A DNA stretch of 64,000 nt. Source: an uncultured Gammaproteobacteria bacterium. GTDB lineage: Bacteria; Pseudomonadota; Gammaproteobacteria; UBA9214. Shown here piece after piece: positions 16,079-31,125 of the stretch. A program made the translations under genes and the position numbers. Below the pieces are notes generated by a model. That model was given only the letters and a program-made list of their open reading frames with translations, made no database searches and had not been told where the DNA came from. The stretch spans positions 320,001 through 384,000 of the forward strand of contig CAVVHS010000007.1 in the NCBI GenBank assembly GCA_963748215.1. Reading direction: 5' to 3'. Numbering within the stretch: position 1 is the stretch's first letter; each line of letters starts with the position of its first letter.

Positions 16079-18541
16079 GTGACCACGGTGCCGGGCGCAC
16101 ATCGCGAGGCCCGCGTCCCGCTGCTGTCGGTGGCGCTGCTCTCGGTCAGCGTGCTGGCCTACGAGATCCTGCTCATGCGCCTGTTCTCGATCATCCAGTG
16201 GCATCATTTCGCCTACATGGTGATCAGCCTGGCGCTGTTGGGCTACGGCGTAAGCGGCACCCTGGTGACCCTGTTGCAAGCGCGGCTGATGGCGCGCTTT
16301 GCTGCGGTGTATACCGGCTGCATTGCCGCCTTCGCGCTGAGCGCCGTGTTCTGTTTTCTGGCCGCGCAGCAGGTGCCGTTCAACGCCGAGCTGGTGCTGT
16401 GGGACATGCGCCAGCCAGGGTGGCTGCTGTTGCTGTACCTGCTGCTGGCCGCGCCCTTTCTGTTCGCCGCCACGGCGCTGGCGCTGGCGTTGATGCGTTA
16501 CAGTGAGGCGATCGGCAGGGTCTACGCCGTTGACCTGGCCGGTGCCGGCCTGGGCGGGCTGCTCGTCATCGCTTTGCTGTTCCTGGTCACGCCGCTGCAG
16601 GCGCTTACCGTCATCGGCCTGCTGGCGCTGCTGGCCGCGGCTATCGGTGCGCGCGAGACCGGGCTGGTCAACGGGCGCCGGCTGCGCGCGCTGCTCGGTG
16701 TCGCCGCGCTGGTGCTGATCGGCGGTGGCCTGCATGGCGAATTGCAGCTCTCGCCCTACAAGGGACTCAGTCAGACGCTGCTGGTGCCCGGTACCCATGT
16801 CGTGGCACAGCGCTCGAGCCCGCTCGGCCTGCTGAGCGTGGTAGAAAGTACGCAGGTGCCATTGCGCCACGCCCCGGGCCTGAGCCTGCTGGCCACGCAG
16901 GAGCCGCCACCCCAGCTGGGCGTGTTCACGGACGGTGACGGCATGACGGCCATCACGCAGGACAGCGGCGAGCGCGCGGCACTGGCGTGGCTCGATCAGA
17001 CCACGTCCGCATTGCCGTACCACCTGCGCGGCATCGAACACGCACTGATCCTGGGTGCGGGTACCGGCGCGGATGTACTGCAGGCGGATTACCATGGCGT
17101 GCCGCGGATCACGGCGGTGGAACTCAATCCGCAGGTCATCGACCTGGTGCGCGACCGCTATGCCGCGTTTACCGGGCACCTCTACCAGCGTGCGGCCGTG
17201 CACACCGATGAGGCGCGCGGCTTCGTGGCGGGCAGCCCCGGGCGCTACGACCTGATCAACATCGCCCTGCTGGATGCGTTCGGCGCCGCGGCGGCCGGCC
17301 TGTATGCACTCAACGAAAGCTACCTCTACACCGTCGAGGCGCTGGAGGATTACCTTGCCCACCTGCAGCCGGACGGCTACCTGTCGATCACGCGCTGGGT
17401 GACGCTGCCGCCGCGCGATACGCTCAAGCTGTTCGCCACCGCGCTGACCGCGCTGCAGCGCCGCGGTGAGGCACACCCGGCCGACCACCTGGTGCTGGTC
17501 CGCAGCTGGCAGACCGCGACCCTGCTGGTCGGGAACGCGCCGTTCAGCCCGGCGGAGATCGAGCAGGTGAAGACCTTCGTGCAGCGCCTGGGTTTCGATG
17601 TCGCCTGGTATCCGGGCATGCCGGCGGTGGAGGCAAACCGTGTCAACCGCCTGCGCGAAGCGTATTTCTACCAGGCGGCCGTGCGCCTGGCCGGCGCCGA
17701 ACGGCAACAGTACCTGCAGGACTACAAGTACGACCTGCAGCCGGCGACTGACAACCAGCCGTACTTTTTCCATTTTTTCAAATGGAGCGCGTTACCGGAA
17801 ATGCTAGCGCTACGCGGGCAAGGCGGCATGCCGCTGCTGGAGTGGGGCTACCTGGTGCTGGTTGCCACCCTGCTGCAGGCGCTGCTGGCGAGCGTCGTGC
17901 TGATCCTGGTGCCGCTGCTGGCGCTGCGGCGCCGCGCACGCAACGCTATGGCCGACAGCGTCGGACGGGGCAGGGTGTTCGTGTATTTCGCGGCCATTGG
18001 CCTGGCCTTCCTGTTCATCGAGATGGCGTTTATCCAGCGCTTCACGCTGCTGCTGCACCATCCGCTGTACGCGGTCGCCACCACGCTGAGCGGTTTTCTG
18101 GTGTTCGCCGGTCTCGGCAGCCACTGGAGCCAGCGCTGGTCGCGGCGCAGGCAGCAGACGCGCGGCATCGCATTCGCGGTCGCCGGCATTGCCGCCATCA
18201 GCCTGGCCTGGCTCGTGTTACTGCATACCTGGCCGGCCGCGCTCACGGGCTGGTCGCTGCCGGTCAAGGTCGTGCTCACGCTGAGTATGATCGCGCCGCT
18301 GGCGTTCTGCATGGGACTGCCGTTTCCACTCGGCCTGTCGCGGCTGGCGGAACAGGCACCCGATTACCTGCCCTGGGCCTGGGGCGTGAACGGCTGCGCC
18401 TCGGTGATCAGTGCCGTGCTTGCCACGCTGCTGGCAATCCACTTCGGTTTCAGTGCGGTGATCCTGCTGGCGGTGCTTTTGTACGGGGTCGCAGCGCTGA
18501 GTGTGCCAGGCGGACGAAGTGTGATCGCTGCGCAACGATAG
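16079..18541 (+). CDS. Multi-TM membrane protein with central spermidine-synthase-like SAM-binding domain
   Basis: TM bundles at both ends; LILGAGTG, VELNP, EAR, PATDNQPYF, WAWGVNG. Confidence 0.8.
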   Translation: MTTVPGAHREARVPLLSVALLSVSVLAYEILLMRLFSIIQWHHFAYMVISLALLGYGVSGTLVTLLQARLMARFAAVYTGCIAAFALSAVFCFLAAQQVPFNAELVLWDMRQPGWLLLLYLLLAAPFLFAATALALALMRYSEAIGRVYAVDLAGAGLGGLLVIALLFLVTPLQALTVIGLLALLAAAIGARETGLVNGRRLRALLGVAALVLIGGGLHGELQLSPYKGLSQTLLVPGTHVVAQRSSPLGLLSVVESTQVPLRHAPGLSLLATQEPPPQLGVFTDGDGMTAITQDSGERAALAWLDQTTSALPYHLRGIEHALILGAGTGADVLQADYHGVPRITAVELNPQVIDLVRDRYAAFTGHLYQRAAVHTDEARGFVAGSPGRYDLINIALLDAFGAAAAGLYALNESYLYTVEALEDYLAHLQPDGYLSITRWVTLPPRDTLKLFATALTALQRRGEAHPADHLVLVRSWQTATLLVGNAPFSPAEIEQVKTFVQRLGFDVAWYPGMPAVEANRVNRLREAYFYQAAVRLAGAERQQYLQDYKYDLQPATDNQPYFFHFFKWSALPEMLALRGQGGMPLLEWGYLVLVATLLQALLASVVLILVPLLALRRRARNAMADSVGRGRVFVYFAAIGLAFLFIEMAFIQRFTLLLHHPLYAVATTLSGFLVFAGLGSHWSQRWSRRRQQTRGIAFAVAGIAAISLAWLVLLHTWPAALTGWSLPVKVVLTLSMIAPLAFCMGLPFPLGLSRLAEQAPDYLPWAWGVNGCASVISAVLATLLAIHFGFSAVILLAVLLYGVAALSVPGGRSVIAAQR

Positions 18542-18669
18542 CCGCATCTGATGCGGTTCGCTGTGCTTACCATATCCTGCGGGCTTAAGCTGTTGATTCA
18601 CAGTACCCTGGGTAAGGAATTCGTAATTTACGAATAGTGATAAACGTATTCTGTCCCTGCCTATTCGTC

Positions 18670-19638
18670 TCACACGGAGATGACGACTTTTCCTCGCGCG
18701 TGTCCCTGTTCGATGTAGCCGAGAGCCGCAGCTGTCTCGCGCAGCGGGTACGTCCTGTCGATAACCGGCGCCAGTTTGCCTGATTCGACCAGCTCTTTGA
18801 GAACAACCAGGTCCTCGTGATTAGGTATCGAGAGATACCGGCGCAGGTTCTGGCGTACGAACGGTGACAGCATGAGCGGCTTGACCAGGCGGACCAGCAG
18901 TTCGAAGCCCTGCGCCCCTGAACCACTGTTGAGGATGAGTGTCCCGTCGGAGGTGAGTGCGCGCCTGCAGTCCGACAGGGTGCGGTTCTCCACGTTGTCG
19001 AAGACAAGATCGTAACGCTGACCACCCCGAGTAAAATCCTCCCGAGTGTAATCGATGACATGATCGGCGCCGATCGAGCGGACCATGTCCACATTTCCCC
19101 TGCTGCATACGCCGGTCACTTCTGCCCCAAATGACCGGGCAATCTGCACGGCGAACGTTCCCACACCGCCCGATGCCCCATTGATCAGGACCTTCTGTCC
19201 CGGCCGTACTTTTCCCACATCGCGAAGGGCGTGCAGGGCCGCGAGCGCGGAGGTTGGTATGGCAGCAGCTTCTTCAGGTGTGAGGTTTTCGGGTTTGTGT
19301 ACAAGCTCGTCTTCTCCGGCACGCACATACTCGGCACAGGTGCCGGTAGTCGCGCCGAACACCTCATCGCCGGGCCGGAATCGCTTCACATTGTTGCCCG
19401 CTGCCTCGACCCGACCTGCCACGTCGTATCCCGGAATGCCGTGTTTTGGTTTGAGCAGCCCGGTAGCCAGTCGCACGGGGAACGGCGCGCCTCGCACAGT
19501 GAAGCAGTCGCCTGCATGGAGTCCCGCAGCGTGAACGCGTACCAGCACCTGATCATCGTTGATGACCGGTGCGTCGATGTCCCTGAGTTCCAGGACATTA
19601 TCAGGTGCCCCGTACTTGTCTTGAACGATGGCCTTGAT
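18670..19638 (-). CDS. NAD(P)-dependent MDR oxidoreductase (quinone reductase/ADH-like); apparent start codon is ATC
   Basis: (I)KAIVQDKYGAPDNVLEL N-terminus, GYDVAG, LINGASGGVG, GHARGKVV. Confidence 0.85.
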   Translation of the reverse strand: MKAIVQDKYGAPDNVLELRDIDAPVINDDQVLVRVHAAGLHAGDCFTVRGAPFPVRLATGLLKPKHGIPGYDVAGRVEAAGNNVKRFRPGDEVFGATTGTCAEYVRAGEDELVHKPENLTPEEAAAIPTSALAALHALRDVGKVRPGQKVLINGASGGVGTFAVQIARSFGAEVTGVCSRGNVDMVRSIGADHVIDYTREDFTRGGQRYDLVFDNVENRTLSDCRRALTSDGTLILNSGSGAQGFELLVRLVKPLMLSPFVRQNLRRYLSIPNHEDLVVLKELVESGKLAPVIDRTYPLRETAAALGYIEQGHARGKVVISV

Positions 19639-19965
19639 GGTAGCCTCCCGATCCGTTGACCGTTACGGTGGGTCAAACCCCTCCACATTATTCATACACG
19701 CCCTGGCGTGATGACGTACCGGATTCGATGTTGGTGCCTTGAATGAAATCTCCACAGCCCCTGACATGACGACACGAGCACTTGTATAGTTTCACTGTCT
19801 AGCAGAGCATTCTGCACCTTTAGGCAGGGAATATCCTGTTTCTGTTAGTTGCTATCCCTTCGTCGCGCTTTGAGTGCCGATTATTGCTGAGGCCGTTGAG
19901 GGAAATGGGCGGCCAACCGCAGAATTTCGACAAAAAGCATCACGGCGTCCGGATGAGAAGAATGC

Positions 19966-20274
19966 TCAGCGAGTACGCTGGCCACCGTCCGGCAATATCT
20001 GCTGCATCATCCCTGCCGGATTCATTTTTTGAAGCTGCTGGCTTCCCTGGGAGAATGTCTGCCCCAGGCCGCGAATGCTTTGCTCCATGCGCTGCATGGA
20101 CTCATTCATGTTTCTCACACTGTCCTGCATTTCGCTGACATCCTGCGAAATGGCGCCCACGTGTTCGGTCATCTCGCCCATCGATTTACTCATATCGAAC
20201 ATCAGCTTCAGAAATAACAGTGCAATGACTCCTGTGGCGAGTATTAATAGCGTCTGTGTCGGTTTGCTGGTCAT
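19966..20274 (-). CDS. Small membrane-anchored Met-rich coiled-coil hypothetical protein
   Basis: GAGG SD, N-terminal TM, heptad pattern. Confidence 0.65.
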   Translation of the reverse strand: MTSKPTQTLLILATGVIALLFLKLMFDMSKSMGEMTEHVGAISQDVSEMQDSVRNMNESMQRMEQSIRGLGQTFSQGSQQLQKMNPAGMMQQILPDGGQRTR

Positions 20275-20342
20275 GGTATTGTTTGCCTCATTGGCTCAGC
20301 GGGTCTGATGCTATTGATTCGTCGATATTAACGGAGGCAAGC

Positions 20343-20474
20343 ATGTACATACAATTGCAACCACTCGCCGCATTGATCGCGGGCATCCTGATCCTGGCCG
20401 TGCCTCGTTTGCTCAATTATATCGTAGCCATCTATCTCATTCTCGTCGGTGTCATCGGCGTTTTCAAGCTCTGA
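20343..20474 (+). CDS. DUF3096-like small membrane protein (43 aa)
   Basis: GGAGG SD; PLAALIAGILILAVPRLLNYIVAIYLI. Confidence 0.8.
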   Translation: MYIQLQPLAALIAGILILAVPRLLNYIVAIYLILVGVIGVFKL

Positions 20475-20583
20475 AACGCGGCTCAATCGGGACGTCGAAA
20501 AAATCCATACGAGTGGTGGATGTGAGCGGAAGAGTGGTAATGATTATTCCCAGTGCGGCATCATCATGGCATCAGTAAATGGG

Positions 20584-20775
20584 AACTTCCGGATTGGAGC
20601 GCAAATCCGACCTTCAGATGAAGTGATGTATCTGTGCGATCACGGTGTGGGTAACGTCAGACGCCGGCCACAATGCGACATTCCCGTAGCTCCTGTGAAG
20701 GTCAGGAACGCAGCAATAGTTGCCGTTCGCAGAATTCTTGGGTACTTCGTTTACCGATCAATAACGGGCTGTCTT
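20584..20775. repeat. Cluster of ~30-bp imperfect palindromes (island boundary module, variant)
   Basis: Units 20584-20614, 20653-20682, 20698-20727; cggccacaatgcgacattcc (20665-20684) is identical to 25398-25417. Confidence 0.65.
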
Positions 20776-20803
20776 TGGTTTTTACTCTGACCCCAAATCA
20801 TAT

Positions 20804-20828
20804 AAGAAAAGGGGCCGTCAGGCCCCTT
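20804..20828 (-). terminator. Intrinsic terminator downstream of the Gly-rich protein gene
   Basis: aaggggcc-gtca-ggcccctt stem followed by T-rich tract on the minus strand. Confidence 0.6.
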
Positions 20829-20903
20829 ATCCGTTGCAGCTTAGGCGTCAGGGATGCAAAGAAACAGCTACACCCTGAAGCCTTTGGCCGGAATGGCTTA
20901 TCG

Positions 20904-21440
20904 TTACTGATAACTACCCGGCGGCGCAGCCCAGGGCTGCATTGGTGCCGGCTTGTTGGCCTCCTCGAGTTTCCTGATACGCGCCTTCAAACGTTGAATC
21001 TCAGCGGCACTCCCTGCGTCTGCCGGTGCACCCGCACCGGGCGCTCCGACATGGCCGGGACCACCACCATAGCCGGGACCACCACCATAACCGGGCCCAC
21101 CACCATAGCCGGGACCACCACCATAGCCGGGCCCACCACCATAGCCGGGACCACCACCATAGCCGGGCCCACCACCATAGCCGGGCCCACCACCATAGCC
21201 GGGACCACCACCATAGCCGGGGCCACCACCATAACCGGGCCCACCACCATAGCCGGGGCCACCACCATAACCGTAGCCTTGCCCCCTGTCATAATCATCG
21301 TCACGGTCTTTATCTTTATTACCACCCATCCACTTGGATGGATTCATCATATTACCCATATCCAATGCACAGGCCGGGTTGGCAAACAGCACGCTGACCG
21401 CCATAAAAATTATACTGATTGTTATTTGCTTGTTTTGCAC
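20904..21440 (-). CDS. Secreted Gly/Tyr/Pro-rich repeat protein, (YGGGPG)12
   Basis: Signal peptide, GAGG SD, repeats, C-terminal short coiled coil. Confidence 0.85.
   Translation of the reverse strand: MQNKQITISIIFMAVSVLFANPACALDMGNMMNPSKWMGGNKDKDRDDDYDRGQGYGYGGGPGYGGGPGYGGGPGYGGGPGYGGGPGYGGGPGYGGGPGYGGGPGYGGGPGYGGGPGYGGGPGYGGGPGHVGAPGAGAPADAGSAAEIQRLKARIRKLEEANKPAPMQPWAAPPGSYQ
21054..21269. repeat. Coding tandem repeat, 12 x 18 bp
   Basis: Unit (g/a)ccgggNccaccaccata; variation only at synonymous positions of the minus-strand frame. Confidence 0.95.
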
Positions 21441-21611
21441 CGTCTATTCCTCGCGTATTATTAATGTAATCGTCAGCGGACAAACGATGCTGCCCGCCTG
21501 CCTCTCGACTACCCTTATCCCACTAGCCGGTCATGGGGTCAAATAAAAGTACATAAATGGGTTCTTATGCGAGGGATAAGCTCAAGACAGGTAGGTATAC
21601 AGCCTAATGTG

Positions 21612-21747
21612 AAGGTCTGGAAAGGGGCGGCTCCCGGTCACCTGACTAATTTACTCAGGAATTTCTCCGGGAACTTCCGAATCCGGCCAACAAGAGACCT
21701 TCTCGGTTACCGGCCTGAACGGAAAGTTCATAGACAACTGAGACGTT
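21612..21747. repeat. Island boundary module
   Basis: Left unit aaggtctggaaaggggcggctcccggtcacc, core taatttactcagg (shared with 25463), right unit 21672-21701, extra unit 21718-21747. Confidence 0.7.
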
Positions 21748-22105
21748 CGAACTGATTTTATTAAGAAAGCCCGTTTTCAGGACATTCCCTTGCCATTCGA
21801 ACTCTACATCAGCATTTGGTGATTAGATGATGTATAGCTTTCAGTCATAGTATTCGCATACAGCCTCTCTCCATTTGCTTCTATAGAGATCCAGGCCGGT
21901 GCATGTTGGACAACACGAACAGCCGGTTATGGAAAATCCATTATTAATCGAGACATCCCTTGCTGATGACGACATTCTAGCGATTGATGGCATTGCTTAT
22001 CAGGCAAGCGGAGTCGTGGAACGGCAACGACGATTTCCGAATCCCTGGTACACTGCGATCGGGACTGCGTTTCGTATAAATCATAGTCTGTGCTCGAATC
22101 ACAAA

Positions 22106-23470
22106 ATGTGGTCTGTTCGCCCATCAGCATTCCTTCTGCCGCTGGTACTCCTGCTCTGGCTGAACGGCGCCGGCGCACAACCCTTTGCAGGCATCCAACA
22201 ACCCGAATCGCCGGTTTCATTTATTGATATACCGCTGCGGCTGTCTCTCGAGCCCCTCATCAATGCGGCTGACAGGATGCTCCCGTACCAGGCTGGCAAC
22301 TGGCGCGCATGGAAGGACTGGCACGGTATAGATTCACAATACCGTGGCTGGCGCGGGCCGCTCAGCATTACTGCCTCAGGCAATGTGCTATTAGTACAGG
22401 CGCATATCCGTTACTGGATCAGGGCACAAAAAAAATTGCTTGGTGCAGTCACCCTGAAAGCCAGCTGCGGCATCGATGAAGCGCCACGACAGGCAGTAAT
22501 CGGCATGCAGGTGCTGCTGGAGTGGGGACCGGACTGGACCTTGAGACCGAGGTTTCGCATTCTGCCGACCCGGTTTCTCGACCGCTGCGAAATGACCATC
22601 GCGAATATCGATGTTACGCCCGTCGTCGAGACTGAATTCCGCAAGCAAATGCAGGAAAGCCTGCGTGCGGCACTCAAGTCGCTGGCTCCCGACGTGAATG
22701 CAATCCAGCGTCAGGCTCAGCAAACCTGGTCGTTATTGCAGGAACCGGTGGAACTCGGACAGGACAACTGGTTATTGCTCAGGCCGGCGAGTGTCGCACT
22801 GTCTCGCATAGACGGTGGGGAGAAATACCTCGACGCACATCTTGCACTGACATTGCAGCCGGCGCTGGTGACCGGAGCTGAACCCGCCGGTAAACCGGTG
22901 CCGCTGCCACCATTAGGACAGTATTATCCCCGGTCCGGCGAGTTAAATCTGCACCTGATTTTGAACCTGGATTTCCCCACACTCAATCAGCGGCTTTCCG
23001 ACACCCTGGCCGGCAAATCATTTGTCATCAAAGGTCAGAAGACCGGCATCAAAAAGCTCGACCTGGGGGGTAGCGGACAGGAAATCAGAGCCCGGATGGA
23101 ACTCGCCGGCGACCTGACCGGTACGGCGGAACTGCGTGCGAGGGTGGCCTATGATGCGCAACACCAGAAGCTTGAATTACAGGACCTGACGTTTGAGTAT
23201 GACGCGGAAGATTCCACCGTGGAGATGTTAGCGGAGGCGTTCCATGAACCCATCCGTCAGGCACTGGAAGACGCGGCTAACCAGGCATTGGCACAGCACC
23301 TCGATCTGCTCGGCGAGCGCCTTGGGACGGTTCTGAAGAAAATCATGCCAGCGGGTGTAGTGCTGGACCTGTCTGCCTTGCAGCTAAGCAGCGTGCAAAT
23401 TCTTATCGAACAACAGGGTATCAGGCTGGATGGAACCGCCACCGGGAGCGCCCGCCTGGTGTTACGCTGA
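22106..23470 (+). CDS. DUF4403-like exported protein
   Basis: Signal peptide, WRGPL, WLLLRP, elongated beta-rich pattern; start at ATG 22106 inferred. Confidence 0.7.
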   Translation: MWSVRPSAFLLPLVLLLWLNGAGAQPFAGIQQPESPVSFIDIPLRLSLEPLINAADRMLPYQAGNWRAWKDWHGIDSQYRGWRGPLSITASGNVLLVQAHIRYWIRAQKKLLGAVTLKASCGIDEAPRQAVIGMQVLLEWGPDWTLRPRFRILPTRFLDRCEMTIANIDVTPVVETEFRKQMQESLRAALKSLAPDVNAIQRQAQQTWSLLQEPVELGQDNWLLLRPASVALSRIDGGEKYLDAHLALTLQPALVTGAEPAGKPVPLPPLGQYYPRSGELNLHLILNLDFPTLNQRLSDTLAGKSFVIKGQKTGIKKLDLGGSGQEIRARMELAGDLTGTAELRARVAYDAQHQKLELQDLTFEYDAEDSTVEMLAEAFHEPIRQALEDAANQALAQHLDLLGERLGTVLKKIMPAGVVLDLSALQLSSVQILIEQQGIRLDGTATGSARLVLR

Positions 23471-23580
23471 CCGCTTAGCACCAAGACCACGGCCGCGGCC
23501 TGCCCGCACTGTACGTGGACAGCGTGCTCCTAGGCTGTAATCGAAGGTCTTCTTACGCTGCCTTTCGTGCCATCTGATCG

Positions 23581-23668
23581 AATGTCTACAACGGGTCGGC
23601 TCTCATCGATTAGAGAAATCTTTTATAAGCGTCTCGTGTAGGGATGGGCTCGGCCAGAACTTGCCGTT
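23581..23668. repeat. Island boundary module (88 bp)
   Basis: 30 + 28 + 30 bp; core gaaatcttttataagcgtctcgtg nearly matches 28759-28782. Confidence 0.75.
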
Positions 23669-23873
23669 CGTGCAAACAAAAACGGCGTCCAGCGAATAAA
23701 AGAAGGCCGCCGGATGAATGCAAGTCTGTAAAGCCGCTTTCCTTCTTGCTATCCCGACCAGACCCTGCAGGCCAGTGCCTGAGAGGTACAGTCTGCGACC
23801 TGGCACTGCCTGGGGAGGTTGCCGTAGAGCGTCTCTGCGATATACTCGACATCATCTTATCGAGGGAGTAGGT

Positions 23874-24455
23874 ATGAAGATAATCAGAATGATAGTCTTG
23901 CTGACGCTACTGGCTGCACAGGGGCTGGCGTGGAGTGGCTTTGATGAGGGGCTTGCGGCAGCCAAAGCTGGAGACTATGCAACGGCGTTACGTGAATGGA
24001 GACCATTGGCTGAACAGGGTAATTCCAGAACGCAATATCATCTCGGGATCATGTATGAAAATGGTCAGGGTGTTCCGCAGGACGACAAAGAAGCGGTGAC
24101 TTGGTACCGCAAGGCGGCTGAACAGGGTCATGCCGGTGCGCAATATAATCTCGCACTCATGTGCCGCAAAGGCCAAGGTGTCCCGCAGGACGACGAAGAA
24201 GCGGTGAACTGGTACCAAAAGGCGGCTGAACAGGGGTATTATATGGCGCAAAACAACCTCGGCCTCATGTATGGCAGTGGTCTGGGCGTCCCGCAGGACT
24301 ATGTCCAAGCCTATAAGTGGTTCAACATTGCAGGCGCAAACGGTGATGAAACAGGAACAAAGAACCGAGATAGCGTTGCTGAAAAAATGACCCCCGCACA
24401 GATCGCAGAAGCGCAGAAACTCGCCAAGGAATGGATGGAGAAACATCAGCAATAG
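23874..24455 (+). CDS. Sel1-repeat (TPR-like) exported protein
   Basis: Signal peptide; repeated AEQG..AQY.LG.MY..GQGVPQD..EAV.WY. Confidence 0.92.
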   Translation: MKIIRMIVLLTLLAAQGLAWSGFDEGLAAAKAGDYATALREWRPLAEQGNSRTQYHLGIMYENGQGVPQDDKEAVTWYRKAAEQGHAGAQYNLALMCRKGQGVPQDDEEAVNWYQKAAEQGYYMAQNNLGLMYGSGLGVPQDYVQAYKWFNIAGANGDETGTKNRDSVAEKMTPAQIAEAQKLAKEWMEKHQQ

Positions 24456-24560
24456 CTGATTGCCACTGTCGGCATTGTCCTACAAACCCACAACAAATCC
24501 AGATGGGACCTGTATGGCTCGTTAGTTCCATTAAGTGACCATTCATATAGGAGTCGGCTA

Positions 24561-24647
24561 AACGTCCGAGAAGGGTCGTCTCCCGCTGTTTAGAGGTTAC
24601 TTATATAGTAATTGTCCCTGCGTCTCAGTACGGCCAGACTGGACATA
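24561..24647. repeat. Island boundary module
   Basis: aacgtccgagaagggtcgtctcccgctgtt + 28-bp core + tgcgtctcagtacggccagactggacata. Confidence 0.7.
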
Positions 24648-24806
24648 GACTATAGGCAAAAAACACCGCTGATGCGGGTTCATGTAGATCCTTGTTCAGC
24701 CAGGAACAGCCGTCCAGAGTTTTCGCGAAATTGCCATGCGTTTCGGCTTTGGAAGAAAAGTGATGGTGTTTATATGTGCGTTTCACAATCGGCCTTGTAG
24801 TTGCTG

Positions 24807-25028
24807 TCAACGCGAGACTCCGCGCCAAATGAAAAGGCTTCCAATGACAACAAGTGCGATCATTCCTATCCAGTAAGCTTCTGGCGCGGTTTCCGGACAA
24901 ACGGGGTAACCACCAGTGCGCGAGGTTGCTGGGAAACAGCCAGTCACAAATCCGTAGGCAGCAAATCCAAGTGAAAGACAGCCCGCAACGAACATTTTAG
25001 GTCCCGAGTTGCCCCACCAATTAAACAT
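24807..25028 (-). CDS. Small two-TM hypothetical protein
   Basis: 73-aa ORF, two hydrophobic segments around a Cys-containing loop; bounded by boundary modules. Confidence 0.55.
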   Translation of the reverse strand: MFNWWGNSGPKMFVAGCLSLGFAAYGFVTGCFPATSRTGGYPVCPETAPEAYWIGMIALVVIGSLFIWRGVSR

Positions 25029-25236
25029 AACCTACTCAAGCGATAAAGTGCCGACACTATATAAGTCCCGGGTCGTAATCCAACTTCGACGGAAAGTCGG
25101 AAAGCCGAGATAGCATGCCAGGGATATCGTCGGCTCCGATAGATATTCCTTTATTACTATATTGATAGTATGACTGTGAAAGTATGGAGGTCACGTAAGG
25201 GTCGATCCCGGAAGTACAGCCTGTAGGTCGCAATTC

Positions 25237-25402
25237 GGCCTGTTGTCTTGAAAAACTCCAATGACCTGCTGACGTCATTATGTTCATTTAGAAATCGTGC
25301 ATGAGGGCTTCCTGAAATCCGTAATATTTTGCAACATGACAAAGCATCTCACTCTCGTGCGCGGTCGATTTCTAGTAGCAGGGTTTTTCAACACTATCGG
25401 CC
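25237..25402. mobile_element. MITE-like element, family B (166 bp including duplicated GGCC)
   Basis: Imperfect TIRs ggcctgttgtcttgaaaaactc / gggtttttcaacactatcggcc; removal restores a 30-bp palindrome unit. Confidence 0.7.
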
Positions 25403-25430
25403 ACAATGCGACATTCCAGGTGTTCACGTG

Positions 25431-25517
25431 AAGGTCTCAGTAGCAGTGCCAGTTCATTCGAGTAATTTACTCAGGTATTCCCCATGTTACTTCCGAGTGC
25501 GGCGAGAACCGGACGTT
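25431..25517. repeat. Island boundary module
   Basis: Core taatttactcaggtattcccc matches 21647; right unit tacttccgagtgcggcgagaaccggacgtt. Confidence 0.7.
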
Positions 25518-25639
25518 CCCTGGATGCAGAAAACCCTGCTAGTGCGGGTCTCCTGGGTGGCAACTTTAGGCCAGCAACAGGCGCTGTGCCGCCGAATATT
25601 CTTTACGCTATTTCGTGATTGTCTGGTGATGCCAGAGTG

Positions 25640-26494
25640 CTAATGCTTGCCAAATAAAATGGCTTTTAGATGTGCAAATATTCCAGGTCTGGCAACATCG
25701 TCAACAATATACAGTCGATCACCGAATTGTAAATCGTCGAGACGTTTACTCAGTTGCGCCGTCTCCTGTGAGAGTCGCTCCACCAGCAAAAATATTTCAT
25801 TGTCAGATTCTTTGTTTCCAGAGATATTCTCGCTTGTTGCTGTTATTGACCCGTCAAGGTTATGGCCAGCCGCTTCCGGACGCCTTCCTGTTTCTCTCGA
25901 CATTGCTTTCACTGCTACTTGCATCTGTGTTGTTGTTTCAGTCAGTTCATTACTGAGAGTTGCGACATCAGCCCTGAAGTCAGTTGCTCTGTGCAATATT
26001 TGTCTTATTGCACTGTCTTTGGCTTCAAGATAGCAGTGAATTACCAGGTCCATATCCAGGAAGACCACTTTGCTTAAGGCTTCCAGAAGCCGGGCAATCG
26101 ATTTCTTATCCCCCGTATGATTCTCGGTAATTAGTTCGATAATCTGACCAAACATCTGACAGTATCCACCGATATACCAGTTGATGGTTAGCCCAACTTG
26201 TGCATGCGCACGTCCGATCTGTTGCGCCCTTTCAAAGAATGCATTGTCGTATTCACCATTGAATAATGAGTTCAACCAATGATATTTTTGCCCTGCGCGG
26301 GCGCGTGCGATTGCATCACCATCAACAAAAAGTTTCTTAAGTTCAGGCTGTCTGAGCAGGTGATCGTAAAATCGATCTAGCATTCCGTCCATTGCTGGCT
26401 CGATGAATATTCTGGCGGCCTGAATTTCGCGAGTTGTTTCTGTATCAATTTTCAGAAATTTGAGGCGCTCCTCGATCATTTGTGTATGTGGCAT
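25640..26494 (-). CDS. Protoglobin/globin-sensor domain protein with C-terminal helical region
   Basis: RLKFL, FYDHL, IGRAHAQVGL..WYIGGY, KVVFLDMDLVI; GGAGG SD before ATG 26494. Confidence 0.85.
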   Translation of the reverse strand: MPHTQMIEERLKFLKIDTETTREIQAARIFIEPAMDGMLDRFYDHLLRQPELKKLFVDGDAIARARAGQKYHWLNSLFNGEYDNAFFERAQQIGRAHAQVGLTINWYIGGYCQMFGQIIELITENHTGDKKSIARLLEALSKVVFLDMDLVIHCYLEAKDSAIRQILHRATDFRADVATLSNELTETTTQMQVAVKAMSRETGRRPEAAGHNLDGSITATSENISGNKESDNEIFLLVERLSQETAQLSKRLDDLQFGDRLYIVDDVARPGIFAHLKAILFGKH

Positions 26495-27621
26495 ATTCCA
26501 CCTCCAAGACATGTGTTATTCGAGCCGAATATTGAATCTCGGATATACCTCGGTATCCGGCTAATTGGTGAGCCAGGTCACAGCAGCATTCGCCATGTGT
26601 TCGTGACTTGTTCTGTTATAATGTTGTTGCATTTCTTTCAGTTCAATTCTGTGCCTATGTTCTCGGCGCGAGACATGCAGAAAGCATAACCCACTTATCT
26701 CGAAATAATCCATCCACAGAACTACCTGCGCGCGCAGGTTAATGCGGCCGCATCGGCATATCCACTGAATACGCACTCGTAGATCGCCAGCGCTTGCTTA
26801 TGGTTCCTCAATGGCATCCCACCAGCAGGCTGCAGACTCACCTGTTGATTGACGTCCAGAATAAATTCCTCAGAATTCGTTGTACATCTCCAGGTGTCAT
26901 GCAATTTTGTATATCAGGTAGCGATTGTGTCACAAGCGAATTCAACGAGTCATGATGTGGCATTTCGCGTTTGTATTCTGTATTGACTGCCACGCTGTCC
27001 GATCGAACAGAATACATCAGTAAAATATTCTATGCTGTGCATATACATAGCCCTTTCTCTATTTCCCAGACATTTCCCCTGGTACTTCCGAACCCGGTCA
27101 ATACATGTTATTCGCCAGATTTCCATGGACATCATGTTGATACTGGTTGTGGGCATGCGTGAGATCCATGTCTAGAACCTATATCAAATAGGCCAATGCA
27201 TCTCCTTATCGGTAATTATCTTCGCACTTGCATGGCGTGCATGTCCGCCAGTAAATCAGCAACACATGCGGCGAAGTGTTCACTGAATACTGTTGTCGCA
27301 GATCAACTACATTGCATCGTACATCAGAACGCAGAATTTCCTGGTTCAATCCAGCACACTAGCTTCAAAAGTGGCAACCGATCAAATAACCATTGATCAC
27401 AGCGTCGTAAATCAGAGACAACGTATCGTACGTCGGTACACATAACCACCTGATTTAATTTGACACATCGAACTGGTGCGTAACTTGCAGCTAGTCGTGC
27501 GTCTGCGAAAATGAGCAAACATGGCGATCACAGGAAAGCACCCACACTGAGCATTAGTACGCATTATTTGCGCCGATACTACATATAGGAGATTTTGAAG
27601 TTAAAGTTAGTTTTCTAAATT

Positions 27622-28542
27622 ATGGAATGGATCAAACAAAAATTGGAGGAGACGCGTAAACGACGGGAGCTGGTGCAGCAAGTCCATGCTGCCTTATCTG
27701 CAGATATGCTGTATCCACCACAGCGCGCCTTCGGCGCTGGGACATATCGGCTGCTCCCCCTGAAGGGCAGCATGTGGCGTATATCAGAAATAGCCATGGT
27801 GATCGCATCGGTCATAATTGCCTGGTTGATCGGAACGGGCCAGGGGCCGGTGGTATGGTTACACAATCTTGACCTGCTTGAATCCAATCAAGTCAGCTCA
27901 GCCGAAAGCCCGGCCGATGAACAGCTGCAGACGCATGTCACCGGCCTAACTGAACGCGTGGACAAGCTGACTGATTTGATTCTAAATCTGGAGTCTGGGC
28001 TGATACATGCCCGCGGTATCACGGATTCAATTATCGATTCTGAACAGAAAATTGCGTCCTCGACTACTCCAGAGCCGTCGACAACTGGCGAGGTAGTGCA
28101 AATCCTTGAGACATTGCCGTCCTCAGCCGCTGGCAAAACACGCAGAGGGATGAGCATTGAAAAAATGCCCCGGCAAACCCCAGCCTGGAGAACAACCAGG
28201 CCCAAAAACACAACTGGTATCCCCGCTATCACCGTCAGTAAGACCGCGATAGAGGGACAGAAGAATTCGGTTATTGGTATACAACCCGCGGTCAGCGTGG
28301 CTCAACAGGGCCCATGGGTCGTCAATCTTGCTTCTTTACCGAGTAAGACCGATGCCGAACGATTCGCGGAAAATGTCCGGATCATGGATATCGAAACGGA
28401 ACAGCAACACGTCACCGTGAAAGGCAAACAATACTGGCGTGTGCAGATAACCGGCTTCTCAACAGCGGCGGAGGCCAAGGCTACTGCCGGAACCACTATG
28501 GAAAAGCTGGGACTTAAGGAAATCTGGATAACGAAGCACTGA
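27622..28542 (+). CDS. Membrane-anchored SPOR-domain protein
   Basis: TM, coiled coil, low-complexity linker, C-terminal WVVNLAS...YWRVQITGF...EA SPOR. Confidence 0.75.
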   Translation: MEWIKQKLEETRKRRELVQQVHAALSADMLYPPQRAFGAGTYRLLPLKGSMWRISEIAMVIASVIIAWLIGTGQGPVVWLHNLDLLESNQVSSAESPADEQLQTHVTGLTERVDKLTDLILNLESGLIHARGITDSIIDSEQKIASSTTPEPSTTGEVVQILETLPSSAAGKTRRGMSIEKMPRQTPAWRTTRPKNTTGIPAITVSKTAIEGQKNSVIGIQPAVSVAQQGPWVVNLASLPSKTDAERFAENVRIMDIETEQQHVTVKGKQYWRVQITGFSTAAEAKATAGTTMEKLGLKEIWITKH

Positions 28543-28684
28543 GTGTTCAGGGGACGCAGAAATATCTGATTCCTGACCTGTCGTTCCGAGCAAGTGCCGT
28601 TGTACAACTACTCCAGCTGATATCTGATAGTTGACCGGGTATGCCCGCTTCTCACCGGCTTCTTCCATTTTGTGGTTTTGTCTA

Positions 28685-28812
28685 TACGTCGTCTACGGGT
28701 CAGTCTTTCCCGTTAAAGCGACTAAAGGTTCGACTGGGTTCGTCTCCCGTCCTTTGCCGAAATCTTATATTGGCGTCTCGTGTAGGACAGGGATCGGACA
28801 ATAGTTGACGTT
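28685..28812. repeat. Island boundary module plus upstream extra unit
   Basis: Units 28685-28714, 28725-28754, 28783-28812; 28-bp core. Confidence 0.75.
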
Positions 28813-28898
28813 TAGATAATACTGATACTTAATTCCGAGCACATTACAGGGGCACTCCGTGCACCCCCGATAACCCACGTGGCTGTTGCAGTGTGCCC

Positions 28899-28926
28899 AA
28901 ATAAATCGGCGACCCGAAGGCCGCCG
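28899..28926 (-). terminator. Intrinsic terminator downstream of the VPLPA-CTERM gene
   Basis: cggcggcc-ttcg-ggtcgccg followed by atttattt on the minus strand. Confidence 0.6.
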
Positions 28927-28948
28927 CTGTTGAATCGGTTATAGCTAC

Positions 28949-29506
28949 TTACGCTTTCTTACGTCTGGATATTCCGACTAGCCATAAAAGGCCAGAGCCG
29001 AACAAATATGCCGCCGCGGGAATCGGCACGGTCGACAGGGTGGCAGTCAACGTCGAGGATGATGTTAGAATCGTTGAATCGTTGATAAGAGCTCCGTCTA
29101 TGGACAATAGCTGATTCGGGTTACCGCTCACGAAACCCAATCCTGAAGCCCCCACCCAGTTCCACGCTTGGCCGCTCGTAGAGGTGCTTCCACCGCCGGT
29201 AATAAATTGCTGGGTGTTGGTATCAAAATTGAAATTGAAAGTTGTGGTACTACCGTCCGTCAGGTTCCAAGTACCGATCAACTGAGTGTTGAGGTACGCT
29301 TCTAACATCAGTGTGTCGATACTGTTTTCATCAATCACACCCGTTCCGATCAGGCTATCACTGTAACTAAATGCGCCGCTCATGGTGTACCCATTGGCGC
29401 CGGCCCATGAAATGTCGAACGAGACTGCGCTGGATATGCCGGGCATAAACCCTGCTACGACCAGTCCCAGCGAGCAAACAATACCTAAAAGGCCTGATTT
29501 TTTCAT
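28949..29506 (-). CDS. VPLPA-CTERM (PEP-CTERM-like) sorting-domain surface protein
   Basis: Signal peptide; C-terminal VPIPAAAYLFGSGLLWLVGISRRKKA. Confidence 0.88.
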   Translation of the reverse strand: MKKSGLLGIVCSLGLVVAGFMPGISSAVSFDISWAGANGYTMSGAFSYSDSLIGTGVIDENSIDTLMLEAYLNTQLIGTWNLTDGSTTTFNFNFDTNTQQFITGGGSTSTSGQAWNWVGASGLGFVSGNPNQLLSIDGALINDSTILTSSSTLTATLSTVPIPAAAYLFGSGLLWLVGISRRKKA

Positions 29507-29885
29507 ACTGCATCATCCTCTAATACTATGTTGATGTTCACAAATTAGAATTCCAGAATTATTGATCTATTGTCAAAAGCCCCAGACCCATACAAAGCAA
29601 AGATATCCAAATGCATAGGGCTATGCTGTCATTGGCCCTCGGCCGAATAGCTCTCTTCAGCATCACTCTCATTTAGAAATACCCAATATACATTGAGTGA
29701 GCGTCTTTTAGAACTGTTTGCCAGAGCGTAAAAGTTCATAATGCAGACGGACTCACAATATTCGCACCGCATACCCGTCAAAAGAGTGAAGTGACATAAC
29801 TTTACATGTGACATGTAAAGAACTGTGTGTCTGAGATCGCAAATCTTTCCGATCACTAAGCGGTTGTTCGTATATATGGTGTTTA

Positions 29886-29974
29886 AACGTCTGAAAAGGG
29901 TCGTTCTTTGTCGTTAAGTCATTGTTTATATGCGCGGTTTATGTAGGGCCGGAATGGGATTTGTTCCAGACCTT
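29886..29974. repeat. Island boundary module (rightmost)
   Basis: aacgtctgaaaagggtcgttctttgtcgtt + 28-bp core + tagggccggaatgggatttgttccagacctt. Confidence 0.7.
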
Positions 29975-30177
29975 AACCTGTCGTTTAAGCAAGCGCAGAC
30001 TTTACCTCCGGAACGAGTCAGCACTGAGCTTTGATAAATCAACAGAAGTGCCTCACGAGAATGCCCTGGTAGCGGGCCGCTGTACTACAGCGCGGTCCGA
30101 TGTCGAGGGGGACTTGCACACAGGCGGGTAATTCGTCAGCAGCAGTGCCATCCCGGTGAACACCGCTACGCGCTGTC

Positions 30178-31125
30178 TCAGGCGGCGCTGCCGAGCCAGA
30201 AGCTCATGTCCTTGTCGAGGAATTCGTGCCAGGACATGTAGTGCGAGCCGTCGCAGGAGAAGGTCAGGCTGATCATGCCGTTGAAGATGTTGATCGAGGC
30301 CGAGCGCAGGTACAGCGTTTCGTCGGCCGTGCGCAGCTGGCGCATGCCGCGCAGGATGCTGCCGATCTTCTGCTGCGGAATCAGCGCATCCGTCGGCCAG
30401 AGACGGCGCGGGTAGAGCATGCAGATATCCGGGTCGCCGAGCGCCTCGTGGTCGAGGATGCGGTAGCGGTACGGGTCTTCCATGAACCACACGGTGGCGC
30501 GGCTGCTGGAGAAGTGGATCACGGCCTGGAACAGGCCGCGCTCGGTGAACAGTTCCTCGAATATGGCCATGGCCGGTTCCATGTTGCGGTCCATCACGCT
30601 GTCCACGCGGCATTGCTGGAACACCGTGCCGCGGATCGCGGGGTCGCCCTTGATCTGGCGCCAGGCGTCCGATTCCACGTAATGCGCGGCCGTGACCGGC
30701 AGGTCGCGCAGGTCAAAGTCGACGCCGATGTAGCCCAGCCGCTTACTGTCGTCGCACACCACCTTCAGCGCGGTCAGGGAGGGCCGGTTGGATCGCAGGC
30801 TCAGGTAGGCACCGGAGAGCAGCAGGCCGCACTCGGGCACGGCCTCGCGCATATAGGGGCGTTGCGAGCGGTCGCGGCCGAAGTGCTCCGGCAGCAGGCC
30901 GGTATGGCTGATGTTGTCGCTGATCTGGATGCCGTTGCTGTCCAGCGCATAGAAGAACATGCCGTAGGGTACACTGCGCAGCCCATCGCCCAGCACGATA
31001 TCGAGTTCCTCGCGCGATCCCCAAACGGGTACGCATTGTGTGGCAAGGTCTTGCAGCGGGACGGATAGTTCACTCTCCAGTGACTTGCGCTGGCGGGCGA
31101 CGGCGTCTTTCCAGGTATCTTTCAT
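30178..31125 (-). CDS. Soluble Cache/PDC-like sensor domain protein
   Basis: YALDSNGIQIS, DRSQRPY, LSGAYLS...PSLT, GVDFDL resemble a Cache/PDC fold. Confidence 0.65.
   Translation of the reverse strand: MKDTWKDAVARQRKSLESELSVPLQDLATQCVPVWGSREELDIVLGDGLRSVPYGMFFYALDSNGIQISDNISHTGLLPEHFGRDRSQRPYMREAVPECGLLLSGAYLSLRSNRPSLTALKVVCDDSKRLGYIGVDFDLRDLPVTAAHYVESDAWRQIKGDPAIRGTVFQQCRVDSVMDRNMEPAMAIFEELFTERGLFQAVIHFSSSRATVWFMEDPYRYRILDHEALGDPDICMLYPRRLWPTDALIPQQKIGSILRGMRQLRTADETLYLRSASINIFNGMISLTFSCDGSHYMSWHEFLDKDMSFWLGSAA

Follow-up and report, generated by a model that had tools for sequence, protein, structure and literature searches.

The island and its genes

The stretch analyzed here (the window) comprises 64,000 nucleotides of contig CAVVHS010000007.1 (C7:320001-384000) from the genome of an uncultured gammaproteobacterium, referred to as G000, with relatives carrying other G numbers. 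It contains an island of genes separated by short palindrome-like modules, the subject of this analysis, which is bounded by two convergent conserved genes at 16079-18541 (plus strand) and 30178-31125 (minus strand) lying 11.6 kb apart. An earlier note on this DNA had described co-oriented modules at 21612, 23581, 24561, 25431, 28725, and 29886, together with a variant cluster at 20584-20775. All six were recovered, each on the plus strand and about 90 to 105 bp long (E values of 1e-10 to 8e-23), with a covariance model (R1) built from 18 module copies following repeat finding and an nhmmer profile. The variant cluster is real and consists of three mini-sites of about 32 bp. The positions of open reading frames (ORFs) bore out that the modules are confined to gaps between genes and that the cargo lies on both strands; the orientation of the modules was independent of that of the genes. 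The lower GC content ascribed to the region was confirmed (0.46 to 0.57 across 20 to 30 kb, versus 0.62 to 0.69 in the flanks), as was the lack of a recombinase in the window: no match of this genome to PF00589, PF01797, or PF00239 fell on contig C7. Pfam likewise supported the DUF4403, Sel1, protoglobin, and SPOR assignments made for the cargo, and the match of the proposed PEP-CTERM protein (NCBIfam) was weak. The features of the island are as follows.

18670-19548, minus strand: cargo, zinc-type dehydrogenase (Pfam ADH_zinc_N_2, 8e-29); opens the island and is common to G030
19910-19930, plus strand: right-arm unit (CGGCCA, N6, R box), start of the two-gene cassette 19910-20670
19966-20274, minus strand: cargo, small coiled-coil protein
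20256-20474, plus strand: cargo, DUF3096 membrane protein (Pfam, 2.9e-17)
20582-20615, plus strand: mini-site 1 (R box, N6, short centre, N6, R box); weak R1 match at 20576-20623
20652-20683, plus strand: mini-site 2; cassette 19910-20670 ends at its CGGCCA
20697-20728, plus strand: mini-site 3; breakpoint relative to G030 at 20715
20904-21440, minus strand: cargo, Gly-rich repeat protein; 90%-identical copy at another hot spot in G036
21604-21710, plus strand: module, centre type B (R1, 56 bits), then two extra arm units to 21752 (21708-21752)
21899-23470, plus strand: cargo, DUF4403 protein (Pfam), in cassette 21730-23550
23573-23677, plus strand: module, centre type A (R1, 86.9 bits)
23874-24455, plus strand: cargo, Sel1-repeat protein (Pfam Sel1, 5e-38)
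24553-24656, plus strand: module, centre type A (R1, 63.5 bits)
24807-25028, minus strand: cargo, 73-amino-acid membrane protein with no family match
25223-25416, plus strand: module, 170-bp centre type C; identity stops at both CGGMCW boxes
25423-25526, plus strand: module, centre type B (R1, 49.4 bits)
25640-26512, minus strand: cargo, protoglobin-domain protein (Pfam Protoglobin, 4e-40)
27062-27115, plus strand: decayed type-B remnant or mini-site between the protoglobin and SPOR units
27622-28542, plus strand: cargo, SPOR-domain protein (Pfam SPOR, 9e-10)
28717-28821, plus strand: module, centre type A, best copy (R1, 93.2 bits)
28949-29506, minus strand: cargo, PEP-CTERM/VPLPA-CTERM type protein (weak NCBIfam PEP-CTERM match); the class recurs in other arrays
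29878-29983, plus strand: last module, adjoining the conserved right-flank gene; same place in G036 and G030

Two cargo genes contain tandem repeats of their own: 14 repeats of 18 bp at 20983-21327 encode the PGYGGG repeats of the Gly-rich protein, and three repeats of 108 bp at 24008-24331 are the Sel1 units.

Anatomy of modules and mini-sites

The module consensus reads (CT)AAyGTC, N6, GGGTCGaCTCCCG, centre, CGGGAtCGGCCA, N6, GaCrTTC. Its outer boxes are GAAyGTC and GACrTTC and not the RYYYAAC/GTTRRRY boxes of attC, whose lack had been noted before. Three kinds of centre were distinguished. Type A contains TTATATAAG and GTAGGA; type B is found in the copies at 21604 and 25423 and in the remnant at 27062; and the third, type C, is the 170-bp centre of the module at 25223-25416, which resembles a miniature inverted-repeat transposable element (MITE) in having inverted ends of about 15 bp and is present in three copies in G000 with 92% identity. 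The mini-sites (20582-20728) have the outer box, spacer, and inner box of the modules with almost no centre, so that over about 32 bp two R boxes enclose a single inner box, each set off from it by N6; mini-site 2 reads TAACGTC-AGACGC-CGGCCA-CAATGC-GACATTC.

The earlier statement that the modules lack an overall hairpin held in part. Only two of the six window modules fold end to end as a single DNA hairpin (folding z-scores of -2.1 to +0.7), but dyad symmetry exists: with the dyad set by hand, 72% of cells pair, compared with 24 to 53% when the partner is slid. RNAalifold on a MAFFT alignment yielded no consensus hairpin. Canonical attC sites of G000 gave folding z-scores of -3.9 to +1.4, and DNA folding z-scores failed to separate modules from true attC sites. 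A genome-wide count with a loose arm pattern (37 matches, versus 18 to 22 in shuffles) was uninformative. A sigma-54 promoter reading of the right arm, made by eye only, was dropped, the GG-to-GC spacing being one base short.

Module clusters occupy variable hot spots

R1 gave 25 matches in G000 at E values up to 0.01, corresponding to 24 distinct places. Twenty-one of the 24 modules lay in seven clusters, on contigs C7, C8 (three clusters), C9, C5, and C1, each uniform in orientation (chance of about 2^-14), and all seven of these multimodule clusters were low-GC islands (45 to 55%, versus about 60 to 65% in flanks). The model was also run on 100 relatives; the module was carried by 46 of the 53 belonging to the same family (five genera) and by 2 of the 47 outside it.

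Comparison of loci among relatives showed that the islands come and go between conserved flanks. The genes flanking the C7 locus are 231, 507, 587, and 795 bp apart in G025, G007, G002, and G027, respectively, and R1 found no module at the locus in any of the four, with G027 retaining only a 46-nucleotide (nt) mini hairpin; the zinc-type dehydrogenase unit is missing from these empty sites as well. G030, with flanks 91 to 96% identical, has 18666-20715 and the last module in common with the window and carries 2.7 kb of other DNA where the window has 20715-29890. The C9 locus spans 12.6 kb in G000; G008 has 270 bp there, G002 has 823 bp, and G027 has other cargo totaling 8.5 kb, punctuated by three modules that keep the same orientation. 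The C5 locus measures 3.9 kb in G000 versus about 90 bp in each of three relatives. Cargo gain, loss, and replacement break at modules, a point that the earlier note had suggested testing, and the cargo is not syntenic in relatives lacking modules, in which the site is empty (231 to 795 bp).

Individual units of the island were found elsewhere. The DUF4403 cassette at 21730-23550 shares 94% nucleotide identity with a sequence in G013 (contig C225), despite the left-flank protein of G013 being only 58% identical in amino acids. The cassette at 19910-20670 recurs in four other contexts at 85 to 88% identity, once each in G030 and G015 and twice in G040, a member of another genus, and the Gly-rich unit is located at a C5-type hot spot in G036. 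A DUF4403 gene with 75 to 76% identity also lies a few kilobases from the left-flank gene in distant members of the genus (G024, G031, and G003), and the DUF4403 unit may be a resident gene that was turned into, or replaced by, a cassette.

Homology breaks at the inner boxes

The edges of these units were compared. In all five contexts, the cassette at 19910-20670 starts with CGGyCA followed by the common spacer ACMGCA and the outer box, the sequence to the left being different each time; in a G040 context, homology ends past the next CGGCCA, after which the spacers diverge. The three type-C centres of G000 match one another from CGGMCT through CGGMCA; past these boxes the spacers and outer boxes differ, and the A/C variant of the box is identical on both sides of any one copy. 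Homology of the SPOR unit to G008 stops at 28797, where the right inner box ends. The DUF4403 unit begins at AGACA, which resembles an inner box and comes with its spacer and outer box; its other end is the GGGT of the left arm that follows, where G013 has a different centre.

Metagenome contigs from Logan (four runs from two studies) depart from the window at 20664/20665, 20715, 21686, 21729, and 25403. These are contigs and not reads, giving no view of circles or frequencies, and parts of the window without contig cover were not counted as evidence. One joint, 20492>20664, ends at the border between N6 and the inner box of mini-site 2, and a contig of run X2 departs at 20715 into G030-type sequence. 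Because the breaks of cassettes, centres, and contigs fall there, the exchange point appears to be the inner box (CGGCCA/GGGTCG) of either arm, and the spacer and outer box would travel with the neighboring unit.

A small tyrosine recombinase accompanies the modules in relatives

The tyrosine recombinase that the earlier note had suggested looking for is absent from G000 and was found in the module arrays of relatives. G018 encodes a 214-amino-acid PF00589 protein between two modules, and members of its family lie inside module arrays of G018, G029, G043, and G040. These proteins, of 211 to 214 amino acids, match the catalytic domain only, with an N-terminal tail of about 45 amino acids, and conserve the R, K, HxxR, H, and Y residues. 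A published classification of tyrosine recombinases (PMC8138268) describes all such enzymes as having a core-binding and a catalytic domain. The small recombinase fell below the cutoff of every NCBIfam model (23.3 bits versus 222 for NF007371 and 15.7 bits versus 221 for NF007370), and its closest solved relatives are XerD, XerH, and XerA (E values of 1e-5 to 7e-8).

Within the family, the small recombinase was present in 15 of 53 relatives from four genera at 74 to 83% identity, often with stop codons. Of 10 family loci, 6 have an R1 match 79 to 90 bp upstream of the gene, on its own strand, and the loci conserve an upstream module, a leader of about 85 nt, a terminator, and a downstream mini-site. 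The unit boundaries are blurred inside the family by identities of 70 to 85%.

The recombinase itself is far more widespread. At least 562 relatives were found in one-genome-per-species contigs (Beta-, Alpha-, and Gammaproteobacteria and others), 8000 clusters were scored in metagenomes, mostly on contigs of 1 to 4 kb, and 414 plasmid records, including those of Sinorhizobium, Escherichia, and Klebsiella, carry it under annotation only as a tyrosine-type recombinase/integrase. On plasmids NZ_CP024308.1 and NZ_CP025190.1 (L163 and L164), the gene has small stress-related and accessory genes around it (Hsp20, DUF982, SPW repeat, and RelE/ParE), with no mobile element annotated.

Elements of the site recur around these distant genes. 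TCGGCCA occurs within 170 nt past the stop codon in 36 of 71 distant loci (0.047 expected per 170 nt), the full right arm in 11 (0.0053 expected), and the left arm in 4 (0.0024 expected). An inverted match of 13 to 14 of 14 positions between the flanks was present in 13 of the 71, and nine of these were judged by reading to be centred on TGGCCGAT / ATCGGCCA. Recombinase units of 786 bp are 99.2% identical between a Zoogloea metagenome-assembled genome and Zoogloea oleivorans, starting at TGGCCGATAG and ending inside CCGGCC; those of 842 bp in two Comamonas are 99.9% identical and also start at TGGCCGATAG. Such units of about 0.8 kb with about 99% identity occur in both Beta- and Alphaproteobacteria. 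The recombinase unit is thus bounded in the same way as the window's centres and cassettes. The earlier note had counted a match of the modules to a known attC or insertion sequence (IS) end as evidence against its reading: they are not canonical attC, but they do resemble the ends of this small widespread recombinase unit, that is, an IS-like end of an apparently uncharacterized element. A literature search that did not extend to supplements, which possibly list the group, turned up no account of either these sites or a recombinase cassette of about 211 amino acids.

Orphan recombination sites or passive repeats

The anatomy, distribution, and breakpoints of the modules, the recurrence of units at hot spots, and the linkage of sites to the recombinase in relatives suggest that the modules are recombination sites of this small tyrosine recombinase family, a reading given a probability of roughly 0.6 on comparative sequence evidence. 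The array in the window would be an orphan one, because G000 has sites but no recombinase. The proposal in the earlier note of a possibly undescribed gene-capture system, working in trans on recombination sites other than attC, is thereby supported, through the breaks, the negative results of attC models described below, and the recombinase in relatives.

The basic site would be an imperfect palindrome of about 32 bp composed of GAAyGTC, N6, a GGCC-containing inner box (CGGCCA or GGGTCG), N6, and GACrTTC, and the modules most likely represent a composite version of this GGCC-core palindrome peculiar to the clade, in which two arms surround a short conserved centre to give 90 to 105 bp. The recombinase is predicted to bind and act on such sites, cutting at the inner box. 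With exchange there, any stretch between two inner boxes would therefore act as a swappable unit, whether a gene, a noncoding centre, or the recombinase gene, probably by way of circular intermediates. The symmetric core could allow the same sites to give excision, insertion, and inversion. Repeated insertion at one site between convergent housekeeping genes would have produced the 11.6-kb row of foreign single-gene units, and for recent turnover G000 would have needed an outside source of the enzyme, acting in trans (an incoming recombinase unit, for instance), or else homologous recombination.

Several observations weigh against assigning the modules to the small recombinase. Neither the gene nor a remnant is present in G000, and the gene is absent from its closest relatives, G030 and G036, yet these three genomes differ in cassettes. 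Among the 53 relatives, modules are far more widely carried (46) than the recombinase (15), and module number is independent of its presence. Outside this bacterial family, R1 found no modules around the recombinase, and full arm patterns occur in only 4 to 11 of the 71 distant loci. Covariation in the module dyad was no higher than in shuffles, one array of G029 has mixed module orientation, and one metagenome contig departs at 23669, past the outer box rather than at the inner box. Any gene in an array is flanked by modules, so the recombinase could itself be mere cargo.

Because G000, G030, and G036 differ in cassettes and lack the enzyme, homologous recombination on passive repeats is a serious rival. 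Here the modules would be passive or selfish repeats, miniature recombinase units that piled up in AT-rich foreign DNA, and cargo would change by homologous recombination or transformation, the modules marking cassettes and not making them. The module centres are 80 to 90% alike across about 60 bp, which is enough for RecA, and exchange inside a centre would place breaks at its edges; the type-C centre, with inverted ends and flanking direct CGGMCW, also looks like a MITE with target duplication. Against this, several junctions fall at mini-sites with only 6 to 7 conserved bases in common, too few for RecA, the clusters are uniform in orientation, and the 99%-identical recombinase units of different species end exactly at the GGCC box. 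Passive repeats are considered an unlikely, if serious, alternative to orphan sites of the small recombinase.

A broader and more tentative proposal, put at slightly under even odds, is that the modules belong to a second, integron-independent gene-capture system of Proteobacteria, in which a minimal recombinase without a core-binding domain, carried as a cassette of about 0.8 kb, exchanges DNA between GGCC-cored palindromes, builds many small arrays at chromosomal hot spots, and spreads single genes across genera. Were this true, much strain-to-strain gene variation would gain a mechanism invisible to IntegronFinder, to IS finders, and to classifiers that assume a core-binding domain, and at considerable scale: thousands of metagenome relatives, 414 plasmid records, and 46 of the 53 genomes from this sediment family with site arrays. 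A recombinase of about 210 amino acids with a site of about 32 bp would also be an attractive compact tool for genome engineering. The claim is directly testable, as cultured hosts (Comamonas nitrativorans, Zoogloea oleivorans, and Aromatoleum) carry intact recombinase copies.

The integron of the same genome

G000 also contains an integron (C2:85000-98338). Its intI gene (TIGR02249, 444 bits) lies at C2:97400-98338 and is cut by a TGA after residue 216, and to its left textbook attC sites of the YATAAC...GTTAT type form a low-GC array with small ORFs. This array has at least 13 sites by nhmmer and up to 21 by a canonical-attC covariance model (R2), which was trained on 24 sites next to intI genes in this bacterial family and is not IntegronFinder's own model. 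Overall, intI was found in 26 of the 53 relatives.

The modules might be divergent attC sites, with their clusters being CALINs (groups of attC sites with no integrase) made and moved by the IntI of G000 or its relatives. The layout of the modules resembles that of attC (outer box, unpaired spacer, inner box, and variable centre); CTAAAC-like left ends are present in about 8 of 24 module copies and GTTTAG on the right in a few, with some copies having CTAAAC...GTTTAG. An intI gene and a classical array are at hand on C2, and one attC site lies 36 bp from a module on C8. CALINs are common (PMC4889954, which defines attC and CALIN), and IntI is described in a preprint (bioRxiv 10.1101/2022.09.11.507474) as able to insert cassettes outside att sites.

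The searches argue against this reading. R2, run with filters off, recovered none of the six window modules, its best unrelated match having an E value of 1.2, despite finding 21 sites on C2 (with the reservation that it is not the IntegronFinder model). Conversely, R1 had no match at E < 0.2 in 17 intI-adjacent stretches totaling 196,727 bases from G000 and 12 relatives, in 12 of which a canonical-site profile found 57 attC sites; the same profile found no attC in the window or in the module loci. Recombination at attC cuts in the outer R' box (G/TT), whereas breaks at the modules fall in the inner box. Modules and intI also occur apart: G042, assembled as a single contig, carries 12 modules but lacks intI, the reverse holds for G002 and G007, and the intI of G000 is broken. 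Divergent attC sites are, on this evidence, an improbable explanation compared with orphan sites of the small recombinase.

One place where the two systems touch and one where they may do so were seen. A canonical attC site (R2, 31.9 bits) at C8:298169-298232 (L009 5170-5233) lies behind a PEP-CTERM gene, close to the C8 module mentioned above, and at its left end it overlies the junction (GGACATT|GAACGTCC) between outer boxes of the module type; it may represent IntI insertion into or beside a module. The integron attC and module systems meet at C8 yet stay distinct. In G051 (L030 1613-1653), a perfect palindrome with module outer-box sequence (CCTAAATGTCCAA...TTGGACATTTAGG; E value of 0.23) sits some 100 bp upstream of intI, at the place expected for attI or an operator of intI.

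Other recombinases and transposases

A profile search identified XerC, XerD, and the broken IntI as the only tyrosine recombinases of G000. XerC and XerD are the only intact ones both there and in the closed genome of G042 with its 12 modules, and they would be the enzymes if the modules were used by the host Xer system, as in the pdif modules of Acinetobacter or Xer-exploiting integrative elements; the solved proteins closest to the small recombinase are also of Xer type. The only dif-like site of G000 (C6:438289), however, is unlike the module arms, and the module sites have a 7-6-6-6-7 layout with variable spacers, not the 11-6-11 of dif. Use by Xer was dropped as very unlikely. Serine recombinases, of which G000 has none and which are present in only 9 of 53 relatives, were dropped as well.

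A further possibility is that the modules are repetitive extragenic palindromes (REPs) or REP doublets (REPINs) moved by Y1 transposases of the REP-associated tyrosine transposase (RAYT) type, or else transcribed regulatory elements of PEP-CTERM genes. G000 has six Y1_Tnp matches, GTAG is present in the right half of type-A modules, and PEP-CTERM genes are frequent module neighbors. But no module adjoins a Y1 gene, and the 1.5-kb flanks of the six matches contain no module-arm pattern other than three matches inside or beside genes. Y1_Tnp matches occur in all seven genomes that lack modules and in none of G042, G036, G013, and G044, which are rich in them. The abundant GTAG-type repeats of G000 are other families, of 60 to 160 copies (for example, GTAGGGTGCGTTTTACGCACC), some forming 80- to 140-bp tandem arrays (L006 14150-18560); they probably belong to the six Y1/RAYT-like genes. 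Rfam gave no match across window positions 19000-31000 at E values up to 1, and module orientation is independent of gene orientation. Both the Y1/RAYT and the regulatory readings are scarcely credible, and the Y1/RAYT candidates were rejected; orphan sites of the small tyrosine recombinase remain the preferred reading.

Comparison with known systems

Among the known systems closest to this array are the pdif (XerC/XerD) modules of Acinetobacter plasmids. In both cases, gene modules are bounded by short palindrome-like tyrosine recombinase sites and recur in different contexts, with the enzyme acting, or here proposed to act, in trans. The present sites differ in being unlike the host dif, in having a small recombinase family of their own, in being chromosomal, and in forming mostly co-oriented clusters.

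The FimB/FimE invertases are similar to the small recombinase in size (about 200 amino acids), in lacking a long N-terminal DNA-binding domain, and in using short inverted repeats, and the symmetric GGCC core would permit inversion. The match is only a weak one (NF007371), however, and the module sites delimit cassettes in direct arrays and bracket the recombinase gene.

Some IS elements target REP or attC sites, and the gene-less module centres, with inverted ends and 92% identity and each located inside another copy of a palindromic site, are reminiscent of MITEs or IS elements at palindromes. In contrast to these, the parent unit encodes a tyrosine recombinase and not a DDE, DEDD, or HUH transposase, and gene cassettes have the same boundaries.

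Integrons are the textbook route by which bacteria collect single genes, and the array shares features with them, sedentary chromosomal integrons and CALINs included. Both systems comprise rows of mostly single, unrelated, promoter-poor genes split by imperfect palindromes made of boxes and a variable centre; in both, the arrays vary among strains, are foreign in composition, can occur without a nearby recombinase, and depend, or in the present case would depend, on a tyrosine recombinase. The modules differ in lacking the attC boxes, in breaking at the inner and not the outer box, in having cargo on either strand, and in forming many small arrays at separate hot spots instead of a single platform of attI and the Pc promoter. 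The candidate enzyme, at about 211 amino acids and with a TIGR02249 score of 17.5 bits against a cutoff of 265, differs from the integron integrase and is itself a unit of the array.

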